Assembly: GCA_042217695.1 (NCBI GenBank)
Contig: JBDGSE010000002.1
Coordinates: 1-28,857 of the forward strand
DNA length: 28,857 nucleotides
Direction of reading: 5' to 3'
From: Candidatus Nanohaloarchaea archaeon
Lineage (GTDB): Archaea; Nanohalarchaeota; Nanosalinia; Nanosalinales; Nanosalinaceae
Below are positions 1,899 through 27,225 of the stretch, piece by piece. The first letter of the stretch is position 1. Each line of letters opens with the position of its first letter. The translations under genes were made by a program, and so were the position numbers. Below the pieces are notes generated by a model that did not search any database, was not told the origin of the DNA, and saw only the letters and a list, made by a program, of their open reading frames with translations.

Positions 1899-3869
1899 AT
1901 GTGTGGGATCGCGGGCGGAGAGAAAACTGAAGAATTGCTCGAACATCTACAGCACCGCGGAGTTTCTTCAGCTGTGGAGAAAGAAGGGTTCCCGCTGGGC
2001 CACATCCTTCACCCCGTTGTCGGAGAGGTCGAACAACCTCTCCAGGGCGCGGGAACACTGGTGGCGAACTGCGAGATATACAACTGGAGGGAACTCGCCT
2101 CCGAGTACGGGTTCGATGTAAGAAACGATGCCGAACTCCTGCTGGAGATGCTGGATGAAAAAGGCGTGGACGCTCTGGAGGAACTGGACGGCATATACGC
2201 CCTTGCGTACCGGCGCGACGGCGAATTAATCCTTGCTAGAGACCTCCTCGGGGTGAACCCGGTATGGTTTTCCGAGGAGCCGTTTGCTTTCGCCTCCGAA
2301 AAACAGGCGCTCGAAAAGCAGGGGATGGAGGCCCGTGAACTTCATCCCCGCCAGGTACTGAAGTACGATACCGGGACCGGGGAACGGGAGTTTGAAAGGA
2401 GAGACTTCTTCGAGGTCAGTGTCGAAGACAGGGGGCTTGAGGAGACCGCGGAAGAGATAAAGGATCTGTTCCTGGAGGCGGTGGATAAACGGGTCCCGGA
2501 TGGAGAGCTCGCCCTGCTGTTCTCCGGCGGCGTCGACTCCACCATGGTGGCGGCCGCACTGCAGGAACTCGGGAAGGACTTCACGGCCTACACCGCAGGG
2601 ATACAGCATGGTAACGTTAACGCCCCGAGAGACGTGGAGTGGGCTGAAAAAGTCGCTGAACAGATGGATATAGAGCTCCGGGTCCACGAGTCAGACCTCG
2701 AGGAGGTCGAGTCCTCACTTGAAGATATCACGGGCTGGATCTCTTCCACCAGCGTAGTAAAAAACGGGGTTGCGCTGCCTTTCCATCACGCACTGATGCG
2801 AAACCCGGAGGTTTCCAGCAGCTCCGGAAACTCTGAAAGTGTTTCATCGCGGGGAGACGAAAAGGTGGTTCTCTCGGGCCTGGGCTCGGAACAGCTCTAC
2901 GCCGGTTACGCCCGTATGCAGAACTACCTGAACAGGGAATGTATCTCCGGTTTAAGGTCTCTGTTCCACCGCGACCTCTACCGCGACAACGTCATCTCGT
3001 TCCGGAACGGCTACGAACTCCGGCTGCCGTTCCTCGACCAGTCCCTTGTAAAACATGCGTTGACCGTCCCGGAAGATCACAAGGTTAGGGACGACTACCG
3101 TAAATACGTGTTGAGAAAAGCGGCGGAAAAGCTTGGTGTCCCGGAGGAAGTGGCCTGGAGGAAGAAGACCGCGGCCCAGTACGGCAGCAATTTCGACAAG
3201 GCCATCGACCGGCTGGCAAAGGATGCTGGGTACAGCCACAAGCAGGAGTACCTGAACTCTTTCTACTCCCGGCCCAACAACAAACTGGTCGCGTTGAGCT
3301 CCGGCGGCAAGGACTCGAACGCCGCCCTTTATCGTGTGAAACGCAGGAACAACGAGATCTCATGTATACTTAACATGAGGAGCGAGAACCCTGACAGCTA
3401 CATGTTCGATTCGAGGGAGTCGCAGACGGTGAGAAAACAGGCGGAGGAACTCGGCGTCCCGCTCATCACGCAGGAGACCGCGGGCGAGAAAGAGAAAGAG
3501 CTGGAAGACCTTGAATCAGGGTTGAGAAGGGCCGTGAACCGTTTCGATGTTGAAGGGGTTGTCGCCGGTGCGCTTGCCTCCACATACCAGCGTGACCGCG
3601 TGGAAAAAGTCGCGGAGCGCGTGGGGCTGAAAGTGTTCGCTCCACTCTGGCAGGAGGACCAGGAACGTTACATACGCTGGTTGATCCGGGAGGGCTTCGA
3701 GATAGAGATAACAGAGGTCGCGGCAAGAGGGCTCGACGAGTCCTGGGAGGGAAAAATCCTCGATGAAGGTTCTGTCGAGGAACTTATCGAGCTTTCCAGA
3801 GAATACGGTTTCAACGCGGCAGGTGAGGGAGGAGAGTATGAGACCCGGGTAACCGGGTTCCCCTCCTAG
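1899..3869 (+). CDS. asnB: Asparagine synthetase (glutamine-hydrolysing) fused to C-terminal diphthine-ammonia ligase (Dph6/DUF71) domain
   Basis: Ntn MCGI start, HRG, NCEIYN, ARD.LGVNP, SGGVDS, SGLGSEQLYAGY, LRLPFLD, KYVLR, WRKKTAAQYGS; then second PP-loop SGGKDS, SYMF and GEGGEYET typical of Dph6. Confidence 0.92.
   Translation: MCGIAGGEKTEELLEHLQHRGVSSAVEKEGFPLGHILHPVVGEVEQPLQGAGTLVANCEIYNWRELASEYGFDVRNDAELLLEMLDEKGVDALEELDGIYALAYRRDGELILARDLLGVNPVWFSEEPFAFASEKQALEKQGMEARELHPRQVLKYDTGTGEREFERRDFFEVSVEDRGLEETAEEIKDLFLEAVDKRVPDGELALLFSGGVDSTMVAAALQELGKDFTAYTAGIQHGNVNAPRDVEWAEKVAEQMDIELRVHESDLEEVESSLEDITGWISSTSVVKNGVALPFHHALMRNPEVSSSSGNSESVSSRGDEKVVLSGLGSEQLYAGYARMQNYLNRECISGLRSLFHRDLYRDNVISFRNGYELRLPFLDQSLVKHALTVPEDHKVRDDYRKYVLRKAAEKLGVPEEVAWRKKTAAQYGSNFDKAIDRLAKDAGYSHKQEYLNSFYSRPNNKLVALSSGGKDSNAALYRVKRRNNEISCILNMRSENPDSYMFDSRESQTVRKQAEELGVPLITQETAGEKEKELEDLESGLRRAVNRFDVEGVVAGALASTYQRDRVEKVAERVGLKVFAPLWQEDQERYIRWLIREGFEIEITEVAARGLDESWEGKILDEGSVEELIELSREYGFNAAGEGGEYETRVTGFPS
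2795..2848. repeat. 54-bp four-block palindromic element inserted in-frame in asnB
   Basis: GATG-C-GAAACC cgga GGTTTC-N11-GAAAC tctgaaagt GTTTC-ATC; same architecture as 9620-9670 and 24969-25016. Confidence 0.7.
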
Positions 3870-10416: not shown

Positions 10417-12066
10417 CTATCCTTCACGGGATTCGAGGTAGCGGCGGACCTCGAGCAGGTTTTTGCGCCTGAGCTCCTCCCTGTACTGCTCTTTCTGCAT
10501 CACCCCGAGCACGTGGTCGACCAGCTGTTCAGAGGCCAGAAGTTTAGAGACTGCTACGTAGAGGGCACCGTCCTCCATCAGCTCGGAGGCTTCTTCTACA
10601 TTCTCGGACCTGAGTATTATGTCCGCGTCCGTGTCCAGGTGGAGTATCCTGCGGGAGACCTTCCCGATGGGGATAGTGGAGATAATCAGTTCCGCGTCCC
10701 CGTAGCTGGCTCTTTCCCATGTCTCCAGATGCATCACGTCGCCGAAAACGTAGTTCTCCTCCTTTTTCATCGCATCCTCGACTTTTTCCGGGTCGTTCTC
10801 CACCACCAGAAACTCCTGGCCCTCCTCGTTAAGTGCCTCTGCCAGCCTCCGTCCCTGGGTGTCGTAACCTGCAAGTATGACGTGGTTCTCCATTTCCGTA
10901 CCTGATTCGGAGTTCTTCATGTCCTGCCGGGTGCTGAAGAGGTCGTGGCTGGAGAGCAGACGGTAGAGCTCCTCCGCATGCCTGCTTGTGTACGAGGACG
11001 TTATCATGGTGAGGGTGGCGGCAAGTATGATGGACTGGAATATGGCCGGGTCCATCCTGCCCGCGAGGAGGCCCTGAATCGCGATTATCAGTGCGAATTC
11101 TGATACCTGGTCCAGGCTGAAACCGGTGAGGTACGCGGTCCGGGAGTCGAAGCCCTGTTCGATGAGGGAGACAGCCGTCACTACAGGTTTGAATACTGCA
11201 GTTATCACCGCCAGGAACAGGGAGGCGAGTATAACCTTCATCGACGGGATGTTTATCAATGCGCCGAGTGTCACGAAGAATATCGCGGAGAAGAAGTCCT
11301 TCAGCGAGCCGACGGTATCCAGGATTTCAAGGTTGTGCGGGAACTTTGCGACCGCGATTCCCGCGGCGAAGGAACCTACGACAAGCGAGAAACCGCCGAG
11401 TTCGGCCAGGGCCGCGAATCCTCCCAGGGTAGCCAGGCTTATCAGCATCAGGAGCTCCTGTGAGCCCTCCGCGAGTTTCGCCACGTGGTCAAAGATGTAG
11501 CGCTGGGTGAAGAGTGCGAAGGCTATCAGGCCAAAGCCGAACGCCAGGTTCTGGATTATGTTGGCCGGGCGGTAAACCGCAGAGCTGAGGGCGATGACCG
11601 CGACTATCGCGAGTATGTCCTGTATAAGCTGGGTGGACTCCGCCAGCCTTCCGTGAAGCAGGTCCATCCTGACGTCCTCGCTTATCAGCTGCAGCCCGAC
11701 AATGGAAGAGCTCAACGAGGCGGCGATGCTGAAGTAGAGTGCGTTCAGGTGGCTGAAACCGAGAGCCCATGCGGTAAGGTATCCAAGCAAACCGATTGAT
11801 GCGACCTGTACAGTGGTGGTTGCCTGGCTTTCCCTTGCCACGGTCTTCAGCCTTTCGGGGTCCAGTTTCAGCCCGAATATGAACACGAGGAAGGCGATAC
11901 CCAGCTGGGTCAGGCCCATCACCTGGCTGCTGTCGATGAAACGTCCCACGAGGATGCCCGCAAGTATGTAGGCCGGTATCGCCGGGTGTTCGAACCGGTC
12001 CAGTATAAGCAGCAGTACCGACGAGACGACGAAGATCAGTGTGAGAGTGTGTACCAGTTCAGTCAT
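10417..12066 (-). CDS. CPA2/Kef-type cation:proton antiporter with C-terminal RCK (TrkA-N) domain
   Basis: PAYILAGIL, LGIAFLVF.FGL, QDILA, GSFAAG, LKDFF.AIFFV..G, QVSEFA; RCK ENHVILAGY...FGD. Confidence 0.92.
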   Translation of the reverse strand: MTELVHTLTLIFVVSSVLLLILDRFEHPAIPAYILAGILVGRFIDSSQVMGLTQLGIAFLVFIFGLKLDPERLKTVARESQATTTVQVASIGLLGYLTAWALGFSHLNALYFSIAASLSSSIVGLQLISEDVRMDLLHGRLAESTQLIQDILAIVAVIALSSAVYRPANIIQNLAFGFGLIAFALFTQRYIFDHVAKLAEGSQELLMLISLATLGGFAALAELGGFSLVVGSFAAGIAVAKFPHNLEILDTVGSLKDFFSAIFFVTLGALINIPSMKVILASLFLAVITAVFKPVVTAVSLIEQGFDSRTAYLTGFSLDQVSEFALIIAIQGLLAGRMDPAIFQSIILAATLTMITSSYTSRHAEELYRLLSSHDLFSTRQDMKNSESGTEMENHVILAGYDTQGRRLAEALNEEGQEFLVVENDPEKVEDAMKKEENYVFGDVMHLETWERASYGDAELIISTIPIGKVSRRILHLDTDADIILRSENVEEASELMEDGALYVAVSKLLASEQLVDHVLGVMQKEQYREELRRKNLLEVRRYLESREG

Positions 12067-12143
12067 GGTTATCCCTCCATGAAGTATAGAGCTGTGCTCG
12101 ACCCGCGTAGTGGGTCATTGCGTGTGAACCGAGCGTAACCAGT

Positions 12144-13823
12144 TCAGTCACTGTTGCCACCCCATTCGATGCGTTCGACGTCTCTCTCGACTTCTTCCAG
12201 GAACAGGTCGCGGTCCTCCAGGTAGAGCTTGACGTACTCGCTCATCTTGTCCCCGGTCAGCACGTTCTTCTGTATAACGTAGTGAGCACCCATATCGTAT
12301 AATTCGGCGGCTTGGGCCATGCTTTCCGCTCTCGCGAAGACGGTGGTGTCTCTTGGTGCGTCCTCCAGGATGTGGAGGTTTACCTCATGGTCGCTGGCGA
12401 CGCAGAGCACGAAATCCGCCTTTTTCAGGTTCGCCGCCTTCCTTATCTCGCCGTGCCGGAAATCACCGTAGACGTACTCGTAACTCGAACCGGAAAGCTT
12501 CTGGGTGTTGGAGGGGTCGTTGTCCACCACGACTATCTGGTCGTATTCCTCCTCCAGTATGGAGAGACTTCTCCGGGCCATCTCGTCGTAACCGGCGACC
12601 ACCACATGGTCCTCCAGATGTCTCACGTCCACGTCACTCTTCTCCTCGGAGTCTATCCTCGCCAGTAACGGCTTTAACCGCCGGTATATCTCCTCGTTAT
12701 ACGTGATGAGGTACGAGGAGCCTCCCATGGTTATTATCGCGACCAGGCTGAGGAAGCCGAGCACCTCCTGCGAGATAAACCCGCTGGAGACGCCTACAGC
12801 CCCGAATATCAGTGCGAACTCGCTTATCTGGCTCTTGTTGAGGCTGGCCTTGAGGGAGGTCTCCGGGGTAAACTTGGCCTGATCCACGAGGAAAAACAGT
12901 ATGCCTATCTTGGCAGCCATGAATACGATGGAGGCTATCACCGCCTCCACCCAGTAACTGCTGAACGCCGAGCCCGTGATGCTCAGGCCGATGTTTATGA
13001 AGAACACGGCCATCAGGAAATCGGTCAGCGGTCTCACGCGTTCCTGCAGCTCGTGGCTGTAGGGTATCTGCGCCAGGCTTATCCCCGCGATAAAGGCGCC
13101 TATCTCCATCGATATACCGAGTTTCCCGGCCGCGGATATCAGGAGGAAGGCCCAGGCAACTCCATGCACAAAGAAGGCGTGTTCGTTGCTGGATATCTCC
13201 CGGAAAAGCCGTGGCAGGAAGTAGCGTGAGGAGAGGTAGGAAAGCCCTCCTATGACTGTTACAACTGCGGCAACCTCCAGCAGTCCTATCGCGATCCCGG
13301 AGAGGGTGGTGGCTCCTGTCGCCAGGATGGCCATCAGTACCACCACGACCAGGTCCTCCACGAGGAGTATGCCGACATCCATCTTTCCCGGGAGCGTTGA
13401 AATCTCGTCTTTGTCCGCCAGAAGCTTTACAACTACCGCTGTCGACGAATACATGGAGGCCCCGGCTATGAACAGCGATTCGATGAGGCTGAAGCCGAGG
13501 AACTGTGCCGTGAAGTACGCCACTGCTGCCACCAGGGCCATCTGGCCCGCAGCTATAAGGGCGACCGGTCTGAATATCTCCCGTATCTCGTCAAGTTTCA
13601 TCTCCAGACCGATAAGGAACAGAAGGAATGCAAGCCCCAGTTCGGAGAGTAGCTCGGTTGAAGGAGTTTTCTGTACTATTGCGAGTCCAACAGGTCCGAG
13701 AACCATACCTGTTACTATGTAGGCCGTCAGCGTGGGCTGCCTGGTCTTCCGGGCGACTATACCGAGGACTGCAGCAACTATTATCGCCACTACAAAAGTT
13801 TCTGCTCCGGAGACCGCCGCCAT
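12144..13823 (-). CDS. CPA2/Kef-type cation:proton antiporter with C-terminal RCK domain (paralogue)
   Basis: QP...AYIVTG..LGP, ELGLAFLLFLIGLE, SSTAVVVKLL, EDL, GAFIAG, SQISEFA; RCK HVVVAGY...YGD. Confidence 0.93.
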   Translation of the reverse strand: MAAVSGAETFVVAIIVAAVLGIVARKTRQPTLTAYIVTGMVLGPVGLAIVQKTPSTELLSELGLAFLLFLIGLEMKLDEIREIFRPVALIAAGQMALVAAVAYFTAQFLGFSLIESLFIAGASMYSSTAVVVKLLADKDEISTLPGKMDVGILLVEDLVVVVLMAILATGATTLSGIAIGLLEVAAVVTVIGGLSYLSSRYFLPRLFREISSNEHAFFVHGVAWAFLLISAAGKLGISMEIGAFIAGISLAQIPYSHELQERVRPLTDFLMAVFFINIGLSITGSAFSSYWVEAVIASIVFMAAKIGILFFLVDQAKFTPETSLKASLNKSQISEFALIFGAVGVSSGFISQEVLGFLSLVAIITMGGSSYLITYNEEIYRRLKPLLARIDSEEKSDVDVRHLEDHVVVAGYDEMARRSLSILEEEYDQIVVVDNDPSNTQKLSGSSYEYVYGDFRHGEIRKAANLKKADFVLCVASDHEVNLHILEDAPRDTTVFARAESMAQAAELYDMGAHYVIQKNVLTGDKMSEYVKLYLEDRDLFLEEVERDVERIEWGGNSD

Positions 13824-17330: not shown

Positions 17331-17711
17331 TTAAAACCCTACCGTAGAGCGGTTCACTGCTTCAAGGTGGTTTCCGCTCCTGATTATGACGAGTTCGCGT
17401 CCCCTGTCCAGCAGTCTCTGCTTTAACTCGCGGTCGTTTGTAGCCACCACGTAGTCTTCCGATACACGGACCACTAGGTCGTCCACATCTCCCTCGCCCT
17501 CGGTCTCCAGGACCTCGATGTCCTGGGTCTCCAGCAGGCGTTCCACGAGATCGGTGTACTTTCCGGATTCGATGCTTTTCGCCTCCTGCACCGCGTCGTC
17601 CAGCGTATACAACTCGTGTTCGGGGTACAGCCGCTCCAGTTCGTCGAACATCGGCAGGGAGAACTGGAAGGGTGCCACCAGAAAGTTGGTGTCCAGCAGG
17701 ATCTTCTTCAT
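17331..17711 (-). CDS. PIN-domain protein (Fcf1/Utp24-like)
   Basis: ILLDTNFL..P.QF, VDD, VATND.ELK.RL; conserved position between eif2g and rpoE1. Confidence 0.9.
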   Translation of the reverse strand: MKKILLDTNFLVAPFQFSLPMFDELERLYPEHELYTLDDAVQEAKSIESGKYTDLVERLLETQDIEVLETEGEGDVDDLVVRVSEDYVVATNDRELKQRLLDRGRELVIIRSGNHLEAVNRSTVGF

Positions 17712-17763: not shown

Positions 17764-18693
17764 ATGACAAAAAATATAGGCGTATTGTGGGATGAATCCG
17801 TCCAGTCCGGGCGTGAGGAACCGTTCGAGAAAGACGCCTGGAACTCGGAGTACAGGATTTTCAGTGATATCGCGGGGAGACATGGCCTGAGGTTCTACCT
17901 TGCGGAGTACACCGAGTATGAGGAAGGTGTCCTGGGGGAGGCCTACACTGTAGAGGAGGGGGAGTGGGTCGTCGTGAACGACGTCCGTATAGAGGGTGTG
18001 TTCGACAAGTTCCTGTTCAACGAGGAGACCTTCGATCTGAAGAAGAGGATGGCCGAAGAGGTCGGCATACTTAACGACCCGGAACTCGAGAGATTATGCA
18101 AGGACAAGCTTGAGACCGCCGAAAGGTTTTCCCGGGTACCGGAGACCAGGAAGGCCACAGAGGAGAACATCACGGAGTTCCTGGAGGACGGTAAAGCGGT
18201 GGTGAAGCCCAGGTACGACTTCGGTGGTCGCGGAGTACAGATAATCGGCTCGATGGATGAACTGGAGCCGGTCGACCCCGAGAGGGCAGTGGTGCAGCGT
18301 TTCATCGATACCTCCGGCGGTATACCGGGTACAGGATACGACGGTGTCCACGACCTGAGAGCCTATGTGGTGGATGGCGAGCTGACATTCGGCCTGGTCA
18401 GGGTGCCCGAGGAGGGCCTGGTAAGCAACGTTGCGCTTGGAGGGAGCCAGTTCCTGTTCCCGGCGGAGGATTTCCGGGACGATGCGCTGGAACTGGTCGA
18501 CCAGGTGAAGGAGGAGCTTTCTGTTTTCTCGCCGGCGATGTATTCCGTGGATATGGTGTATGACGAGAACGGCACGGTGTGGATAGTCGAGCTTAACTCC
18601 AAGCCGGGGCTCAGTTTTTACAGCGACCAGGAGATGAAAGAGGCGGTGTTAAAAACCGTGGAAAGGCTTTGCTCCGGACTGGAACGCATCTAG
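17764..18693 (+). CDS. ATP-grasp ligase, YheC/YheD- or RimK-like
   Basis: ATG at 17764 (the ORF-track start overlaps the PIN gene); CKDKLET, VVKPRYDFGGRGV, VVQRFID, HDLR, SNVALGG, YSVD, ELNSKPG. Confidence 0.88.
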   Translation: MTKNIGVLWDESVQSGREEPFEKDAWNSEYRIFSDIAGRHGLRFYLAEYTEYEEGVLGEAYTVEEGEWVVVNDVRIEGVFDKFLFNEETFDLKKRMAEEVGILNDPELERLCKDKLETAERFSRVPETRKATEENITEFLEDGKAVVKPRYDFGGRGVQIIGSMDELEPVDPERAVVQRFIDTSGGIPGTGYDGVHDLRAYVVDGELTFGLVRVPEEGLVSNVALGGSQFLFPAEDFRDDALELVDQVKEELSVFSPAMYSVDMVYDENGTVWIVELNSKPGLSFYSDQEMKEAVLKTVERLCSGLERI

Positions 18694-19760
18694 AGCTCTT
18701 CGACGTCTTCCTCCAGCATCCTGGAGGCCTCTAATCTCAGCTTCTTCGCCTGCCGGAGGTCTATCCGGGAACCGTTCTGCATCCTGCCTGATAGAGGAGA
18801 GTAACGGGAGTACTGTATACCCATCTCGTCGAGGTAGTTTCTCACCCCGGGCGATTTCAGACCCTTCTTTGACGCGTTCCGGGAGAGTTCCTTGACCCTT
18901 TCGAACTCCGGCAGCACGAGTTTTTCCCTGTCGTTCTCCCCGCCCGGCACGACCTCTTTCCGCTGTGACTCGAGGAGAATCCTCTGTACGTCCTCCACCA
19001 GTTTCAGGGTCTCGCTGGGAAGGGTGGCGTCCGGGGACCTGTACTCGACTGTGGGGAACTGGTCCCGGAGCCTTATCGGTGTCCAGATAGACCTGTCGGG
19101 GTGGTAGTGTTCCAGGAACTTTTCCTCGGGTATCCCTGCCTCCAGGGCGCCCTCCCTGAATTTTTCAAACGCGTCATTTATCCTCTGCTTCCATTCGTCC
19201 ACCGAGTCGGTGTACTCCCATAGAGAGACGGATTCCGGGAACTTCGGGTCCCAGCTGTAGCGGTAGACCCAGTTCCGCATCGAGGACGCGTTGTTCCTGC
19301 CCTGGTGGTATGGTGAGGCGTTCAGAAGGGCGAATGCGGGGTCCAGAGCGGTCAAAACGTTTAACTGGTCTTTCACGTTCTCCTTCTCGAAGTGGATGTG
19401 GGTGCCGGCCCTGGCGAGTTCTCGCTCTATCTGGATGTCCTCTGGGTTGAACTTCTTCATCATCTCGAGGCGTTCGGTGTCGAGCAGTTCTATCCCGTCG
19501 TGTTTCAGGGGAGTCCCCAGCGGAACAATTTTCAGGCCGTGTTTCCGGGCGTGTTCGATGACTCGCCGTGTCTTCTGTTTTATGTCCCCCCTCAGGCCGT
19601 CGACGGTTTCATGTGGCTCGGATTTTATCTCGGCGATGCATGTCGCGAACTCCGGGGCCGCGAATTCCAGCTCGCCGGTGATAGGCTCTGCGCTGGTAAG
19701 TTCTCCAGAACGGTTGACCGTGAAGTATTCCAGTTCGATACCTTTCCTGATACAGGCCAC
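18690..19760 (-). CDS. Glutamate-cysteine ligase family 2 (GCS2/YbdK-like carboxylate-amine ligase)
   Basis: GIELEY, EF....EIKS.PH, PLGTP, AGTHIHF, L.ALDPAFAL.NASPY..G, WTPIRLR..FPTVEYRSPDATLPS. Confidence 0.9.
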   Translation of the reverse strand: MACIRKGIELEYFTVNRSGELTSAEPITGELEFAAPEFATCIAEIKSEPHETVDGLRGDIKQKTRRVIEHARKHGLKIVPLGTPLKHDGIELLDTERLEMMKKFNPEDIQIERELARAGTHIHFEKENVKDQLNVLTALDPAFALLNASPYHQGRNNASSMRNWVYRYSWDPKFPESVSLWEYTDSVDEWKQRINDAFEKFREGALEAGIPEEKFLEHYHPDRSIWTPIRLRDQFPTVEYRSPDATLPSETLKLVEDVQRILLESQRKEVVPGGENDREKLVLPEFERVKELSRNASKKGLKSPGVRNYLDEMGIQYSRYSPLSGRMQNGSRIDLRQAKKLRLEASRMLEEDVEEL

Positions 19761-19761
19761 C

Positions 19762-20646
19762 TCACTCTTCCCGGGCCATAGCCCTTTCGTGCAGGAACTC
19801 GACTATACCGAGGATGATGTCCTCGTCCACTATCTCGTTTATCTCCTCGCTGAGCCCGAACTGCGCCGCGTTCATCTCGAGCACAAAGATGTCGTCCTCC
19901 GACTCTATGATGTCTGCCCCGCTGATACCCGCTCCGATCGCCCTTGCCGCCCTGATGCCGGTGTCCCGCATCTCGTCTGTCAGTTCGACTTTCAACCGTT
20001 CTCCGCCGGCGCCGATGTTGGAGCGCCACTCGCCCTCGTCCGATGAGGAGCGCTGGTACGCGACGACATGGTCTCCTATCACGATGACGCGGTTGTCGGT
20101 GCCCGAGTGCTCCATGTACTCCTGCAGGCATATGTCCTGTTCGAACGCCTTCATGGTGTCCATCACGGGTTTCAGTTCGGACTCGGAGGAGGCACGCATA
20201 ACTCCCTCTCCTCCTCCACCGGTTATAGTCTTCATTATTATGGGGTATCCAAGTCTTTCCGCGGCCTCGACCGCGGTATCCGGCGACAGCGTGTAAACAC
20301 TGTCCGGGACGTTCAAACCGTTTTCTGCCAGGATCTTCATGGTGTAGAACTTGTTGGTCATCACCGCGAATGTGTCGTCTGAAAGCGGGGTTAGAACACC
20401 GGAGTTGTTCAGTATCTCTGCCAGGTGTTCCGCGAAGTAGACCTCCTCGTCGGAGTGTCGCAGGTAGGCCACGTCGAACTCTGTTATGTCGGTGCCCTTG
20501 TAGAGCACCTGTGTCTCCTCGGGGCCGTAGATGAATTTCAGGCCGTCCGCCGGGACCGCGAGCACCGTATCGAATATCTCTTCTGCGCGTTCTATCATCA
20601 GCTGGTGGGTGGTGGAGTACTCGCCGTACACTATAACCATTTTCAT
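19762..20646 (-). CDS. RimK-family alpha-L-glutamate ligase (ATP-grasp), motifs intact
   Basis: NKFYT..L...GL.VP, PIIMK...GGGGEGV, LQEY, D.RV.VIG, WRSNIGAGG, GADII, LEMN. Confidence 0.9.
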   Translation of the reverse strand: MKMVIVYGEYSTTHQLMIERAEEIFDTVLAVPADGLKFIYGPEETQVLYKGTDITEFDVAYLRHSDEEVYFAEHLAEILNNSGVLTPLSDDTFAVMTNKFYTMKILAENGLNVPDSVYTLSPDTAVEAAERLGYPIIMKTITGGGGEGVMRASSESELKPVMDTMKAFEQDICLQEYMEHSGTDNRVIVIGDHVVAYQRSSSDEGEWRSNIGAGGERLKVELTDEMRDTGIRAARAIGAGISGADIIESEDDIFVLEMNAAQFGLSEEINEIVDEDIILGIVEFLHERAMAREE

Positions 20647-21453
20647 CTATTTTTCCTCCCTCAGCACGTCGGCAACGGTTTCGTAGGCGTTTTTACCCGA
20701 GAGTTCTGTGTAGAGCCCGAGGTCGGGATTGGGGTTCACGTCCTCCACCTTGTCTCCCCGGAGGAGTACCTCTGCCACGGGTGTCCCGATGGCCTTCCGT
20801 GTCTTGAGAACCGTTTCCTTCTTTTCCTGGGATACGGTATGGTACTGGAGGTTGTCGTCGGAGAACTGCCATCCCTCGGAGTTGTCCGCCAGTGATATCA
20901 CGCTGTCGCCCGCTACCAGGCACCGGTACCTGTCCCCGCTCCGGAGTTCCTGGAAGAGCACGAACTGGTTGCCGCGGTCGATGCCCTCGGCGAATTCCTG
21001 TATCTCCTCCACGGTCTCCAGGCGGGTCTTTTCGGTCTCCACGGATTCGTCGAACTTTCGGGCCACGAGAGGACCCTTTATGTGCCGTTCGATATTACGG
21101 GAGGCCTTTTCCGTGGCCACTACCGCGGTCTTCGGCGCCGGCACGTCTTTCTCGTGTAATACGTGGTAGAGGTAGTTCTTCTTCGACATTATGAAGAATC
21201 CTGTCGAGGGATAGTTCAGCCGGACACCCATCTCCTCTATCATCTCGAGGGCGACCCGTCCGAAAAGTGCGTTCTCGGTTGGTATCTCCGCGAAGACGGC
21301 GTCGTATTCTGAAACCGAGCTGCCGTTGAACTTGACGTCTGCCTCCCCGTCGATTACTTCTGGAGCCAGCGCCTCTATATCTATGTGCTCGGTGTCGTCG
21401 AACAGCGAATCGAACTCCGGGTGTTCGCTACCCGTTATGGTGAGAAGCTTCAT
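20647..21453 (-). CDS. RimK-like ATP-grasp paralogue with degenerate catalytic motifs
   Basis: KKNYL...L....VPAPKT, LFQE, YRCLV.G, DVNPNP retained; no Gly-rich K..GxxGxGV loop and no WRSN..GG loop. Confidence 0.8.
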   Translation of the reverse strand: MKLLTITGSEHPEFDSLFDDTEHIDIEALAPEVIDGEADVKFNGSSVSEYDAVFAEIPTENALFGRVALEMIEEMGVRLNYPSTGFFIMSKKNYLYHVLHEKDVPAPKTAVVATEKASRNIERHIKGPLVARKFDESVETEKTRLETVEEIQEFAEGIDRGNQFVLFQELRSGDRYRCLVAGDSVISLADNSEGWQFSDDNLQYHTVSQEKKETVLKTRKAIGTPVAEVLLRGDKVEDVNPNPDLGLYTELSGKNAYETVADVLREEK

Positions 21454-21533
21454 TTTTTGTGGTACCTCGGGCTTAATGCCTTTGGAACTCTACGTAGTCA
21501 ACGGGTTTACCAGCTGTTAAATGCGTTACGGTA

Positions 21534-23069
21534 CTATCCCTCATCCTCTTCTTCCCCCTCAGGATGCCATACGCGGGTTATCTTGTCGTTTCCGCGCCAC
21601 TCCTCAACGTACTTGTTCATGGACGAGGGCATGGCGTCCTTCAGTATCCTTCCCTGCCGCAGGATCTTCCTGAGCCGGGCCTCCAGGGTCTTTGAAAGCT
21701 CGTCGTAGTAGTTCTTGTCGGCGTATATCAGGTCGTTCTTGATACGCCAGTAAGCGGTTGTGCCCTTCGGTGCCGCGACGATGTATCCCCGGGAGTGATC
21801 GAACTCCGCCATCGCGTCCAGGAGCCGTTCCTTGTCGATGTAGTACACGCCGCCTTTCGTGCCGCTGGGATCCATGACGAGGATTTCGTTGCCCTCGACT
21901 CCTACCGCGAGGACGAAGTGGCCGGCGTTCGCATCAGGGAATATCTCCGGCTTGTAGAAGTTGGGTACTATCAGGGCGCCGTCGTTGAACCAGGCCTTGA
22001 ACTCGTCTCCCAGGTCGGAGACCTTGTCGTACTCCACGAATGCGGCCCTGACATCGTTGTTGGTGAGTTCCTCGACCGATTCCATGAGTCCTTCTACCTC
22101 GGTGCCCTCCTCTTCCGTGGTGCCGGCCGCGTCGCCTATCTCGTCCTGGCTGTACCTGTAGCCAAAGATCTCCAGCGCCATCTCCATCGAGGCCGGGCCG
22201 CAGTACGCCGGGTGCTGGGCCACGAAGTACGAGGTTATGTCCTCCAGTGTCTCGAGGTCGCTCTTGGTTCTCTTCAGCTTTATCGACGACTTCATTATCT
22301 CTCTGTTGGGCGTTAACAGCGTGTACCCCGAGTTCGTGTCCACCGCTGTTGAAAACATCGTCACCTCTCTTATCTCGCCGGGCTCATCCTGTATGTTCAC
22401 CTCTTCGCCCGGACGGACCATCCGCGAGTTCTTCAGGTATATCCCTGCGGCAAAGTTCTGGAACAGGTCCTTGAAGCCGTAGAAGAGGAGTCCGGCCACC
22501 AGGAATGCTATAGCCCATGAAGAAGCGTTTATCAACTGGTTTATTATCGTCTGGCCTATGCCGAGCTGGTCCAGCATTATCTGGAGCAGTATAAGATACA
22601 GGAAAGCCTTTATTATGCCTGATATCAGGTTGAAGGCCTGGGATGAAAGTCCTGCCTCCCGGAAGTAGTTTTTGATGCCTATAGTATTGAGGAAGTCCAG
22701 GGTTACCTTGGCGAACACGTTTATCGTTATAACGCCGAGTATACCTATCAGGAAGACCGACAGCAGCCGCGGGATGAACTCTGTAACCCGGAGGTAGAGC
22801 TGTTCGGTTAACGCCGAGTTGAGGTAGAACAGCGCCATCGCTATGACGCCGGCGTCCATGAGGTACGATGCGTACTGTATGCGTTCCTCTTTCCGGGTTA
22901 CGTCCTTCTTGGTGGCGGATTCCCTGGCCAGCGAGATCCTTCTCAGAACGAGACTGGTCACCTTTACGGATAGATGGCCGGCTACCAGTATGAACAGGGT
23001 TACAAGCAGTCTCACGGTCGTGTTCTCCTGCAGCACGAAGTTCAGCAGAGAATTCAGGAGGCCGGCCAT
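21534..23069 (-). CDS. MscS-family small mechanosensitive channel fused to a C39-like/papain-fold cysteine peptidase domain
   Basis: About five N-terminal TM helices; MscS TM3/beta signature KDLFQNFAAGIYL...VRPGEEV.I....GEI.EV.MFST......G....PN; then Q-x4-CGPAS, GHFVL.VG and VMDP catalytic motifs. Confidence 0.88.
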   Translation of the reverse strand: MAGLLNSLLNFVLQENTTVRLLVTLFILVAGHLSVKVTSLVLRRISLARESATKKDVTRKEERIQYASYLMDAGVIAMALFYLNSALTEQLYLRVTEFIPRLLSVFLIGILGVITINVFAKVTLDFLNTIGIKNYFREAGLSSQAFNLISGIIKAFLYLILLQIMLDQLGIGQTIINQLINASSWAIAFLVAGLLFYGFKDLFQNFAAGIYLKNSRMVRPGEEVNIQDEPGEIREVTMFSTAVDTNSGYTLLTPNREIMKSSIKLKRTKSDLETLEDITSYFVAQHPAYCGPASMEMALEIFGYRYSQDEIGDAAGTTEEEGTEVEGLMESVEELTNNDVRAAFVEYDKVSDLGDEFKAWFNDGALIVPNFYKPEIFPDANAGHFVLAVGVEGNEILVMDPSGTKGGVYYIDKERLLDAMAEFDHSRGYIVAAPKGTTAYWRIKNDLIYADKNYYDELSKTLEARLRKILRQGRILKDAMPSSMNKYVEEWRGNDKITRVWHPEGEEEDEG

Positions 23070-23106: not shown

Positions 23107-24297
23107 TTAATCCGTGGATTTGATCCTGCCGTGGCCGATAAGACGCCAGCGAGACCCTATCTGCCGTGAGATGGCCACGCGGTCTCCCTCTTCCGCACAG
23201 ACAGGGACTTTCAGGTCCAGTTTCACGTTTTTACCGGCCTGTGTGACTATCCCCGCGGACTTGTTGGTTCCAACGTTCAGCATCAGGGCCTCGTTCTGCT
23301 TGATGTTCTCGATCTCATCCTCGTTCTCGGCGCCCACGAGCCGTTCCATCAGGTTGGCCTCTATCGTCAGGCTGTCCGTTACAGGAGGGAGGTCCTCTTT
23401 CTTTCCGAGCACGTTGCCAGAGAGGCCGTCGGACTTGGTCAGCGCCGGGTCCAGAGAGGTCTCCACGGCGAGAAGACCGCCCGGTTTACCGGTGTCCACA
23501 GGTTTCTGGCCCTGCATGATGGACTCTACTTCGGTTGTGATGGGCTCCCATTTGTCCTCTCCTGTCCTTACACCGGGCCGGATCTCGACCTCGTCTCCGA
23601 CGTCGAGTTCTCCCTGGACGAGACTTCCCCCGACAACGCCTCCCCGCAGGTCTTCTGCCCCGGTCCCCGGCTTGTTTATGTCGAACGAACGTGCAACCAG
23701 CATCCGTGGTTCTCCGTCGGGTCTCTCCGGGGTCGGGAGGTTTTCATCGATGGCCTCAAGTAAAAGGTCTATATTGACGTTGTGCTGGGCAGATACAGGT
23801 ATGACGGGTGCGTCTTCCGCGACCGTTCCCTCTGTAAACTCCTTTATCTGTTCGTAGTTCTCCCTGGCTGTTTCCTCGTCGACAAGGTCTATCTTGTTCT
23901 GCACGATAACTATGTTTTCGACCCCGATGATATCCAGTGCGGCCAGGTGTTCACGGGTCTGGGGCTGCGGACACTCCTCGTTTGCAGCTATGACCAGTAT
24001 CGCGCCGTCCATAATCGCGGCTCCTGAAAGAACATTGGCCATCAGTGTTTCGTGTCCTGGGGCGTCTACCAGCGAGAGTGTCCGTACCTCATCGCCGTTT
24101 CCCTCGACGTTGAGTTCGCCGCTGTCGTCCTCGTAGTATGTGACATCGGCGTATCCGATCCTTATCGTTATACCTTTCTTCAGCTCCTCGCTGTGTTCGT
24201 CGGTCCATTTTCCGGATAGAGCGCGTGTCAGTGTTGTCTTTCCATGGTCGACGTGGCCGACCAGTCCTATGTTTACTTCAGGTACCCCTTCGCTCAT
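23107..24297 (-). CDS. eif2g: Translation initiation factor 2 subunit gamma (aIF2-gamma)
   Basis: [63 protein letters not shown]. Confidence 0.97.
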
Positions 24298-25020: not shown

Positions 25021-25132
25021 AGTTTCCACCTGCTCAGCTATAGGACCGAGCAATTCGGTATTGTTCAGAAAACTTTTTCAATACTGACACGCTGTCAGGT
25101 ATTTTTATTCGATTGTAACCCAGTTGAGAGTT

Positions 25133-26563
25133 ATGAGAGGTTCGGTGACTTCGCGGCTGGTCGGCCGCCTTTTACAGGTCTACTCTGTCCTGGTGGCTGC
25201 CCCGCTCTTCATCGCCGTTTACTACGGCGAGACCATGAGCACGGTCTCGGGGTTCGCTATAGCCGCAGCGACCTCTCTTTTCGCGGGCTACGCCCTCTGG
25301 TACCTGGGCGAACCAGAGGAACCCTCCACGCAGGAAGCCCTGTTTGCCACCGTCTTCGGATGGTTCCTCGCGGTTGCGATAGGGGCCATCCCGCTGCTAA
25401 AGTTCATGCCGGTTGTCGACGCGTTTTTCGAGGCTGCGGCAGGTTTGACCACTACGGGGATATCGATGCTGCTGGCGCCCGGATCGCTGCCTCACTCCAT
25501 ACTCTTCTGGCGCGCCCTTATGCAGTGGGTGGGAGGTCTCGGTATACTGACCTTCTTCATAGCGATAATCCGGGAATCAGGCGGTATATCCAGGAGGCTG
25601 TTCTCGGCCGAGGCCCATAAGACAGATCCTGGTTCGATAAGGCCTTCCCTCAGGAAATCGGTTATAGATCTCTGGAGGGTCTACGGGTTCCTGACCGTGG
25701 TGATAATGACCGTCTACATCGCGCTCGGCATGCCTGTGTTCGACTCGGTGGCCCACGCATTCACCGTGCTCTCCACGGGTGGTTTCTCCACAGTGGGGGC
25801 ATCCATCGCAGGATTCAACTCCATGGCTATCGAGGCCGTGACGGTACTTTTCATGTTCATAGGTGGTGTAAACTTTGTTTTGCTTTACAGGTTTCTCCGG
25901 GCCGACCCGCGTCCACTCTTCAAAAACTCCGAGTTCAGGCTCTACCTACAGATATTTGCGCTCCTGACCGCGGTAAACTTTGCAGATATCGTCTCGCGCT
26001 ACGGTATACAGGAGGGCCTACTGAACGCTGCTTTCCAGTCCGCCACCCTGATCTCCTCGACAGGTTACAGCAATATGTCCATAACCGCTTTCTCGCTTCC
26101 CCTGCTCTCGATTTTCCTCGGGGTGATGTTCATCGGTGGTTCCCTTGGTTCGACCGCGGGAGGTCTCAAGATTTTCCGTCTCAAGACCATGATAGAGCTG
26201 CTGAAGACCCGGATAAAGGCTTATTCGCTGCCTGAGACCGCGGTGAATGAGGTAAAGATCGATGGAGAGATACTGTCCCGGTCTGCGGTCAGGACGATCT
26301 CGGTACTGTTCTTCACATGGCTTGCCGTGGTGTTCGCCGGGACAGTTTTCACGGTTTTCGCGGACAGCCTGACATTTTTCCAGGCTCTTTCCGGGGTTCT
26401 GTCCTCGGCGGGCAACATGGGTCCCGTGTACATGAGCGGCGAACAGCTGGTGGGTCTGTCCGCTGCCACGAAACTGGTGTGGCTGGTGGTGATGATAGCC
26501 GGTCGCCTCGAGATGCTGCCGTTACTGGCATTATTTAATACAGGGATTCTCAAAAACAACTAG
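25133..26563 (+). CDS. trkH: Trk potassium uptake system membrane subunit TrkH
   Basis: DAFFE...G.TTTG.S, WR...QW.GGLGI, STGGFS, SSTGY, MFIGG..GSTAGG.K..R, GNMGP, M..GRLE; alternative TTG start at 25124. Confidence 0.95.
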   Translation: MRGSVTSRLVGRLLQVYSVLVAAPLFIAVYYGETMSTVSGFAIAAATSLFAGYALWYLGEPEEPSTQEALFATVFGWFLAVAIGAIPLLKFMPVVDAFFEAAAGLTTTGISMLLAPGSLPHSILFWRALMQWVGGLGILTFFIAIIRESGGISRRLFSAEAHKTDPGSIRPSLRKSVIDLWRVYGFLTVVIMTVYIALGMPVFDSVAHAFTVLSTGGFSTVGASIAGFNSMAIEAVTVLFMFIGGVNFVLLYRFLRADPRPLFKNSEFRLYLQIFALLTAVNFADIVSRYGIQEGLLNAAFQSATLISSTGYSNMSITAFSLPLLSIFLGVMFIGGSLGSTAGGLKIFRLKTMIELLKTRIKAYSLPETAVNEVKIDGEILSRSAVRTISVLFFTWLAVVFAGTVFTVFADSLTFFQALSGVLSSAGNMGPVYMSGEQLVGLSAATKLVWLVVMIAGRLEMLPLLALFNTGILKNN

Positions 26564-26565
26564 AG

Positions 26566-27225
26566 ATGTATGTCGTCATAATCGGGATAAACACTCTGTC
26601 CAGAAGGCTTGTAGACCGGCTGGAAGGCAGGCATGATGTGGTGGTGGTCGACGAGGACGAGGACAAGTGCAAGAGACTGTATTCCTCGACCGGGGCCACC
26701 GTCATAAACAAGTCGCCGACCACTCTGTCCGCCCTGGAAGATGCAGGGATAACATCGGCGGATGCTTTGATCGCCACATTGAAGGACGACAACCAGAACA
26801 TGGTCGTATCGTCCCTCGGGAAAAAGTATGGCGTGCCCAAGGTGATAGCGCGATTAGAGGACGACGAATACTTCGAGGCATTCCAGATAATAGGCGCGGA
26901 GACCATCGGCCACACAGACATACTTCTATCCGAGTTCCTCTCTGCGGTGGAACACCCGTACCTGGTTAAGCTGGCGAACCTTTCCAACGGCCGGCAGATA
27001 CTGAAGGCGTCGATAGAAGAGGATTCCCGCCTCGTCGACAAGTCGGTCGGCGCGATAAAGGAGGAGGACACCTTCCCTGAAGAGTTCGAGATCGTCTCTG
27101 TTATACAGGACGAGGAGACCTACGTCGGAGAACTCAACCTCAAGGTCGAAGAGGGCACAGAACTTGTGCTGATAGGGCCGGAGGAAGAGAAAGGCCGGCT
27201 GGACCACTTCTTCCAGAACCAGTGA
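26566..27225 (+). CDS. trkA: Trk potassium uptake regulatory subunit TrkA (RCK_N + RCK_C)
   Basis: MYVVIIG, HDVVVVD.D, L..AGI..ADA.IA...DD..N, GVPKVIAR; directly follows trkH. Confidence 0.9.
   Translation: MYVVIIGINTLSRRLVDRLEGRHDVVVVDEDEDKCKRLYSSTGATVINKSPTTLSALEDAGITSADALIATLKDDNQNMVVSSLGKKYGVPKVIARLEDDEYFEAFQIIGAETIGHTDILLSEFLSAVEHPYLVKLANLSNGRQILKASIEEDSRLVDKSVGAIKEEDTFPEEFEIVSVIQDEETYVGELNLKVEEGTELVLIGPEEEKGRLDHFFQNQ

Follow-up and report, generated by a model that had tools for sequence, protein, structure and literature searches.

The window analysed here, a stretch of 28,857 nucleotides from a Candidatus (Ca.) Nanohaloarchaea archaeon, carries a gene block in which the gene for a fusion of an MscS-like channel and a papain-like enzyme domain is followed by those for two proteins of the RimK ligase family. 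All five open reading frames (ORFs) that the original prediction, made from the sequence alone, had proposed for this block were found in place. The MscS-papain fusion gene, identified by ORF and family scans (21534-23069, minus strand, 511 aa), is followed on the same strand by the pseudo-RimK gene (20647-21453, 268 aa), the gene for a RimK-family alpha-L-glutamate ligase (19762-20646, 294 aa) and the gene for a GCS2/YbdK-like carboxylate-amine ligase (18690-19760, 356 aa, GTG start). A gene for a YheC/D-like ATP-grasp ligase converges on them from the plus strand (17764-18693, 309 aa counted from the ATG at 17764). Gaps between the four minus-strand genes are 80, 0 and 1 nt, in agreement with the tight packing predicted for the last three, and the predicted overlap of the GCS2 and YheC-like stops is also seen, the two sharing the 4 nt CTAG at 18690-18693.

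Nanohaloarchaeal genomes are about 1 Mb in size and hold little biosynthesis. Among 70 genomes of the phylum, 28 of them near-complete, a profile search located the cytoplasmic part of the fusion in 64, including 27 of the 28 near-complete ones. The locus was taken from all 64 fusion-bearing genomes (a first set of 37 and a later-fetched set of 27), and every one shows the order fusion, pseudo-RimK, RimK, with four loci split over two contigs and two ending inside RimK. Since the three genes are contiguous in 64/64 genomes, their linkage is not due to chance, and the co-conservation of the channel-peptidase fusion with the RimK pair that had been predicted is borne out by this neighbourhood check. 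The conserved unit is, however, one of three genes and not of five as originally claimed. GCS2 and the YheC-like gene jointly accompany the core in only 8/64 genomes, GCS2 is present in 13/70, and the five-gene unit is therefore rejected. The core block has eIF2-gamma on one side and PIN/rpoE1 on the other wherever the nanohaloarchaeal contigs reach. What follows RimK is variable: this slot may hold GCS2, a YheC-like gene, a P-loop protein, MATCAP (PF08014), AstE/AspA (PF24827), further paralogues of RimK or an N-formylglutamate amidohydrolase (FGase), while the convergent YheC-like gene occurs in zero to three copies per locus. The module is real and conserved, and we read it as a variant of the RimK write/erase systems that is set apart by its unusual fusion of channel and enzyme.

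The channel part of the fusion (aa 1-263; 22281-23069, minus strand) consists of transmembrane (TM) helices and an MscS beta-domain, the latter matched by PF00924 at aa 201-263 (33.9 bits against a cut-off of 20.2). In a profile comparison the fusion matches E. coli MscS at E 3e-11, and MscS structures of 171-174 aa are also among its matches. The TM helices and beta-domain are shared with the MscS family, but the profile matches end at position 264-270, no match to the C-terminal alpha/beta cage domain of MscS was obtained, and the enzyme domain follows in its place. The pore helix may also differ from the Gly/Ala-rich one of MscS: it carries conserved bulky residues (W/Y185, F196 and Y/F/W197), and its alignment to E. 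coli TM3 is gapped. An AlphaFold model of the fusion has a mean pLDDT of 75.8 and a pTM of 0.41. The protein ends in a helical tail (21537-21758, minus strand) with conserved aa 436-482, which are alike in copies with an intact and with a broken catalytic pair (mean identity 0.67 and 0.65); the RimK pair may dock on this tail. At least in L051, L057, L058, L060 and L061 (family f4 and some of f3) the fusion ends in a short conserved (L/I)DEF motif. A second MscS gene of ordinary length, divergent and upstream of rpS6e, is found in L049, L051, L052, L055, L058, L059, L060 and L063 (families f3 and f4).

The papain-like domain (aa 274-437; 21759-22250, minus strand) scores as Peptidase_C39_2 (38.4 bits against a cut-off of 24). 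The top Foldseek match of the fusion model is, however, 2bu3, a structure of the Nostoc phytochelatin synthase (PCS) Alr0975 (NsPCS; also 6tho), with E 5.7e-8 and about 20% identity. With a profile built from 32 intact domains the match to Alr0975 has E 1.2e-9 and spans positions 6-164 of 168, whereas the C39-type ComA and PCAT1 match only at positions 7-63 with E 2e-3 or worse. This comparison rules out a bacteriocin-type C39 peptidase as the closest relative and, unlike in the bacteriocin ABC exporters, no ABC transporter domain was detected in the fusion by the Pfam scan. Residues Q285, C290, K373, H384 and D400 align with Q64, C70, R173, H183 and D201 of Nostoc PCS (the labels C70, H183 and D201 being taken from the profile alignment to Alr0975), giving a Gln-Cys-His-Asp catalytic set in PCS register and a lysine at the position of R173. 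The roles of Q64 and of R173, a second-substrate-site residue, are as described in the available part of PMC3855540. Unlike the Nostoc enzyme, the domain is fused to a channel and has no match to PCS Lys206/Tyr207. The predicted peptidase or transpeptidase at the channel is supported for this genome by an intact catalytic set and a closest relative of the transpeptidase type, but trimming as a general feature is not supported, the Cys-His pair being broken in 32/64 genomes.

The RimK protein scores 144.3 bits with TIGR00768 (cut-off 143.4), and its closest solved relatives are the Pseudomonas and E. coli RimK proteins. Its residues K99, K139, Gly loop, D184/R186, R208-S-N210, D245 and E257-x-N259, which we take to carry the ATP-grasp catalytic roles, are invariant in 34/34 orthologues. 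Pseudo-RimK reaches only 32.3 bits with the same model and has no Pfam match. The glycine-rich loop, R-S-N, the D245 equivalent and E-x-N were not found across its orthologues, so the label 'degenerate' given to this 268-aa RimK paralogue in the original prediction is right; even so, it is kept in every core locus. RimB (PF05618) was found in 1/70 nanohaloarchaeal genomes and not in this one, in a search that also gave matches in 2/14 controls. A distinct third RimK clade is carried by the loci of family f4, and the locus L058:7402-10351 (G030) holds an extra RimK and MATCAP in the direction of the core, plus a further RimK paralogue and AstE/AspA.

The accessory genes bear out the glutamate theme that had been claimed for the block. 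The GCS2 protein matches PF04107 (50.2 against 21 bits) and YbdK (E 2.8e-6), falls below the TIGR02050 cut-off (57 against 176.4 bits), and has residues E9, E11, E44, H121, R232, E239 and R241 invariant in 7/7 sequences. The YheC/D-like protein matches PF14398 (38.8 against 26.8 bits) with its best stretch only at aa 261-302, and its nearest Atlas clusters are labelled jointly RimK, GSH-S and YheCD. Directly after RimK, 18 genomes carry instead of GCS2 a P-loop protein, which adjoins ESM Atlas clusters with DUF1611 in 11-16% of members. Its model (pLDDT 93.6) has a C-terminal domain whose fold matches the DUF1611 structures 2g0t and 2obn and the N-acetyltransferase DgcN, 7xrj (Z 17.8, 16.2 and 15.6); according to the part of PMC12363236 available, a D-Glu pathway has dgcN as its key gene. 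One DUF1611-like homologue, L189:1492-2523 (G099), lies between argG and argC, a placement which suggests glutamate N-acetylation, and it is possible that this gene is a stand-in for the glutamate N-acetyltransferase.

The state of the enzyme domain is coupled to the gene that follows RimK. The Cys290-His384 pair is intact in 32 of the 64 nanohaloarchaeal fusions and broken in the other 32, the broken class taking in four copies which keep the Cys but not the His. A locus GCS2 (13 genomes) or DUF1611-like gene (18 genomes) stands right after RimK in 31/32 intact-pair genomes and in 0/32 broken-pair ones. The first set gave 15/15 intact (GCS2 in seven, the P-loop gene in eight) against 0/22 broken, and the later-fetched set 16/17 against 0/10; GCS2 was searched genome-wide in all genomes and the P-loop gene in nine of the ten later broken-pair genomes, G044 being scored by its locus only. 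The locus-type GCS2 is always in the post-RimK slot and always accompanies an intact pair. MATCAP shows the reverse distribution in the first set, being present in 21/22 broken-pair against 4/15 intact-pair genomes, and in these four it lies outside the locus. In the broken copies conservation falls in the regions around the Cys and the His (from 0.82 to 0.48 and from 0.67 to 0.36) while the channel and tail are unrelaxed, and a basic residue is retained at position 373 in 30/31. On an eIF2-gamma tree used as a species proxy (57 rows, 56 scored), the pair state changes 14 times, 11 of them forced, and 10/11 independent pairs agree with the coupling and none disagree (p=0.002). An earlier tree test with 34 rows and five independent pairs (p=0.0625) was too small and was redone with the 56 rows.

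The fusion is not confined to halophiles. Many full-length fusions were found in a whole-library search, with the catalytic set intact in 31 of the 44 aligned, and a genome scan gave at least 51 loci, with at least 31 long matches from genomes labelled Woesearchaeota, Nanoarchaeota, Micrarchaeota, Nanohalarchaeota, Methanosarcinales or simply 'archaeon'. Among the matches listed, the pair is intact in 31/31 full-length distant fusions, a count to be read with search patterns that favour an intact Cys. The hypersaline-specific origin claimed for the system is not supported, and a halophile-only system is rejected given intact fusions in distant archaeal genomes. A RimK match is present in 27 of these 31 genomes. 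Two loci, L130 and L132, hold fusion, pseudo-RimK, RimK and an N-formylglutamate amidohydrolase, L132 with a YheC-like gene in addition; their RimK and pseudo-RimK each cluster with the nanohaloarchaeal ones (support 99/96 and 100/99), and their triplets are not beside eS6, eIF2-gamma, PIN or rpoE1. At most distant loci read, a RimB-type aspartic protease adjoins RimK (13 such ORFs were aligned, and 3/3 scanned were PF05618), and in G081-G083 the order RimB, pseudo-RimK, RimK mirrors that of fusion, pseudo-RimK, RimK. The pseudo-RimK of these tandem arrays (L155, L157 and L159) groups apart from the nanohaloarchaeal one, so that RimK/pseudo-RimK pairs probably arose twice. A Woesearchaeota-type RimK with a C-terminal extension of about 70 aa is seen in L156, L158, L160-L165 and L170-L179. 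The fusions in L102, L103, L107 and L108, titled 'uncultured Methanosarcinales', share 70-74% identity with a query from a cluster named Woesearchaeota, and these labels may be wrong.

Our best model, to which we give about even credence, is that of a RimK write/erase module, anchored in the membrane, for small glutamate peptides. The fusion would take the place held by RimB in other DPANN archaea. RimK and pseudo-RimK may form a mixed oligomer bound to the channel's conserved tail, and RimK would add alpha-L-Glu to the C-terminus of an acceptor. At the intact-pair loci the acceptor is proposed to be an N-capped glutamate, either gamma-Glu-X made by GCS2 or N-acetyl-Glu made by the DUF1611-like protein, from which the PCS-like domain could remove or transfer C-terminal residues via an acyl-enzyme. 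At the broken-pair loci the domain may persist as a scaffold or ligand-binding module, with trimming left to MATCAP or AstE/AspA. MATCAP/TMCP enzymes are described as deglutamylases, MATCAP taking polyglutamyl chains off a protein, in the part of PMC10499314 available. The likeliest use seems to be as a store of glutamate or anions from which release occurs at the channel, but this is also the weakest step and we put it forward only tentatively; MscCG of Corynebacterium glutamicum provides a precedent for MscS-type glutamate export, as given in the available text of PMC8060640. A fuller version, unlikely as a whole, can be imagined: an MscS-like ring, its cage replaced by PCS-like domains, would scaffold RimK and pseudo-RimK, build N-capped oligoglutamate as an anion and osmolyte store, and let glutamate or the peptide out through the pore under membrane tension. 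Lineages would have switched repeatedly between versions with an active domain, for which GCS2 or a DUF1611-like acetyltransferase supplies the primer, and versions with a dead domain, trimmed by MATCAP.

Several observations weigh against the write/erase model and the coupling on which it draws. G068 has an intact pair with neither GCS2 nor a DUF1611-like partner and is a real exception. It carries a second, unlinked YbdK-like ligase family (L101:1339-2886, 516 aa), which is also found in G005, G009, G018 and G024; because this amounts to 4/14 broken-pair genomes tested, we rejected the unlinked gene as an explanation. On the fusion's own tree (61 rows, active-site columns removed; G007, G020 and G044 left out as fragments) the pair state changes only eight times, four of them forced (p=0.125), and a tree of the N-terminal part alone forces two changes. 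The own-gene tree giving so few changes, whole-cassette transfer inflates the count on the species tree; the outcomes of the two trees therefore indicate that loss has happened repeatedly and cassettes have been transferred as well, and the coupling has moderate statistical support. Among the distant matches listed, 29/31 fusions stand alone with no RimK adjoining, and GCS2 and DUF1611-like matches were seen in only 5/31 and 2/31 of these incomplete genomes. A general coupling of the pair to GCS2 or a DUF1611-like gene was not found in these 31 incomplete genomes, and we therefore regard the coupling as a nanohaloarchaeal feature and RimK as the wider partner. The DUF1611-like protein is just as near in fold to dethiobiotin synthetase (Z 17.1), and no match was obtained for its N-terminal domain. 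Finally, Pfam ranks C39_2 over Phytochelatin (PF05023; 23.1 bits for the whole protein and 25.8 for the domain alone, against 24.9); since Pfam alone scores C39_2 higher, we describe the domain as one that would work like PCS and do not assign it to that family.

Some of these points would also suit two sets of mere neighbours, the channel-peptidase and the RimK pair doing separate jobs and the coupling being a product of whole-cassette transfer. The solitary distant fusions, the non-significant test on the own-gene tree and the RimK of G014, which groups with that of another family, would all fit. We consider this very improbable. Against it stand the triplet order, held in 64/64 nanohaloarchaea and two distant genomes, the repeated decay of the active site that spares the tail, and the minimum of four forced changes that the fusion's own tree still requires. 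In protein polyglutamylation, an unlikely alternative, the RimK pair would add Glu tails to eS6, RpoE1, eIF2-gamma or the acidic tail of the channel, and the PCS-like domain or MATCAP would erase them. The nearest solved relatives of RimK, the RimB genes adjoining related DPANN RimKs and the reported action of MATCAP on a protein all point this way. So do the position of the nanohaloarchaeal block among eS6, eIF2-gamma, PIN and rpoE1 and the fact that RpoE1 and the fusion are among the five of 1423 stop-to-stop frames of at least 150 aa in this genome with at least five Glu in the last eight residues. The L130/L132 triplets, however, lie away from all four of those genes, and GCS2, the DUF1611-like protein, AstE/AspA and FGase all belong to families of small-molecule enzymes. 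A CDC123-like action on eIF2-gamma, the precedent for which is taken from the available part of PMC4431377, was rejected on its own, with no Pfam R2K (CDC123-type) match at E 0.01 among the window proteins and L130/L132 not beside eIF2-gamma; it is kept only within polyglutamylation.

A thiol cycle of the glutathione or phytochelatin kind, which comes near to the published GshAB annotation of these genes, appears unlikely. Here GCS2 would make gamma-Glu-Cys, an ATP-grasp enzyme would add Gly or Glu, and the PCS-like domain would strip or polymerise the product. PCS, the closest solved relative of the domain, does act on glutathione, all 13 locus GCS2 genes accompany an intact pair, and the available part of PMC10266531 lists GrxC, GloA and ATP-grasp genes named GshAB in the same genomes. 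This genome, too, holds ligases of the GCS2 family and of the ATP-grasp type, as in GshA/GshB glutathione synthesis. But GCS2 is accessory in the nanohaloarchaeal locus, its place being taken by the DUF1611-like gene in 18 intact-pair genomes, and the YheC-like gene is absent from 5/13 GCS2 loci. The GshB models NF003573/TIGR01380 give 51.2 bits for RimK and 29 bits for the YheC-like protein, far from the cut-off of 272, and Lys206/Tyr207 of PCS are unmatched. In Ca. Nanohalococcus occultus both 'GshAB' genes are ATP-grasp genes in the paper's own table, in the part seen of PMC10266531, and in the fusion (P0119) Ser and Arg stand in place of the catalytic pair. In that source the fusion is called no more than an MscS channel, two ATP-grasp genes are given as GshAB that make glutathione, and pseudo-RimK is hypothetical; its glutathione annotation fits the locus poorly.

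Among known systems, RimK-RimB(-RimA) of Pseudomonas and E. coli RimK likewise involve an intact-motif RimK-family ligase with a protease, and provide the precedent for synthesis and removal of poly-alpha-Glu, including on ribosomal protein S6 in Pseudomonas, in the available parts of PMC11957791, PMC10092738 and PMC12239564. The nanohaloarchaeal system differs from these in its pseudo-RimK, its membrane channel, its papain-like instead of aspartic protease, its swappable accessory genes and the near absence of RimB (1/70 genomes). The rlo operon of Pseudomonas aeruginosa (RloA, RloB, RloC) includes RloB, a seven-helix protein with a periplasmic domain (PMC12239564, in part). Compared by description, the nanohaloarchaeal protein is instead an MscS-like channel with its domain after the beta-domain, intact in half of the genomes. 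No description of the channel-peptidase/RimK module was found in the searchable literature, subscription papers and preprint supplements being outside this coverage. If the write/erase model is true, a lineage-wide module kept in nearly all near-complete genomes would gain its first function. It would also mean that an enzyme is built into an MscS-type channel, that the conserved pseudo-RimK has a role and that MATCAP-family proteins have work to do in prokaryotes, and the published glutathione annotation would be replaced. Two cultivated organisms would offer a natural comparison, the record of Ca. Nanohalovita haloferacivicina having the catalytic set intact and that of Ca. Nanohalococcus occultus having it broken. 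In the latter the locus genes are transcribed (PMC10266531 Table S1, as far as available), with reads per kilobase per million (RPKM) values of 3506 for eIF2-gamma, 3484 for the channel, then 486, 995, 769 and 479, and 160 for PIN; by gene order the four middle rows probably are pseudo-RimK, RimK, YheC-like and MATCAP.

The block is flanked in the window by the eIF2-gamma gene (23107-24297, minus strand), 37 nt upstream of the fusion gene, and by a PIN-domain gene (17331-17711, minus strand) followed by rpoE1, rpoE2 and rpS24e. Whether a general archaeal operon is interrupted here, as had been claimed, was examined in one genome, G033, where the block is absent and eIF2-gamma and PIN are split by a single ORF of about 100 aa. 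In L056:14520-17588 (G011) the eIF2-gamma frame extends to 1022 aa, probably through an intein insertion. In most loci the block is flanked by a tandem of two Kef-type K+/H+ antiporter genes and by TrkH/TrkA (window 10417-13823 and 25124-27225), and G033, without the block, still has the TrkH/TrkA and antiporter neighbourhood. At 1899-3869 of the window, an asparagine-synthase/glutamine amidotransferase domain is fused to a diphthamide synthase domain.

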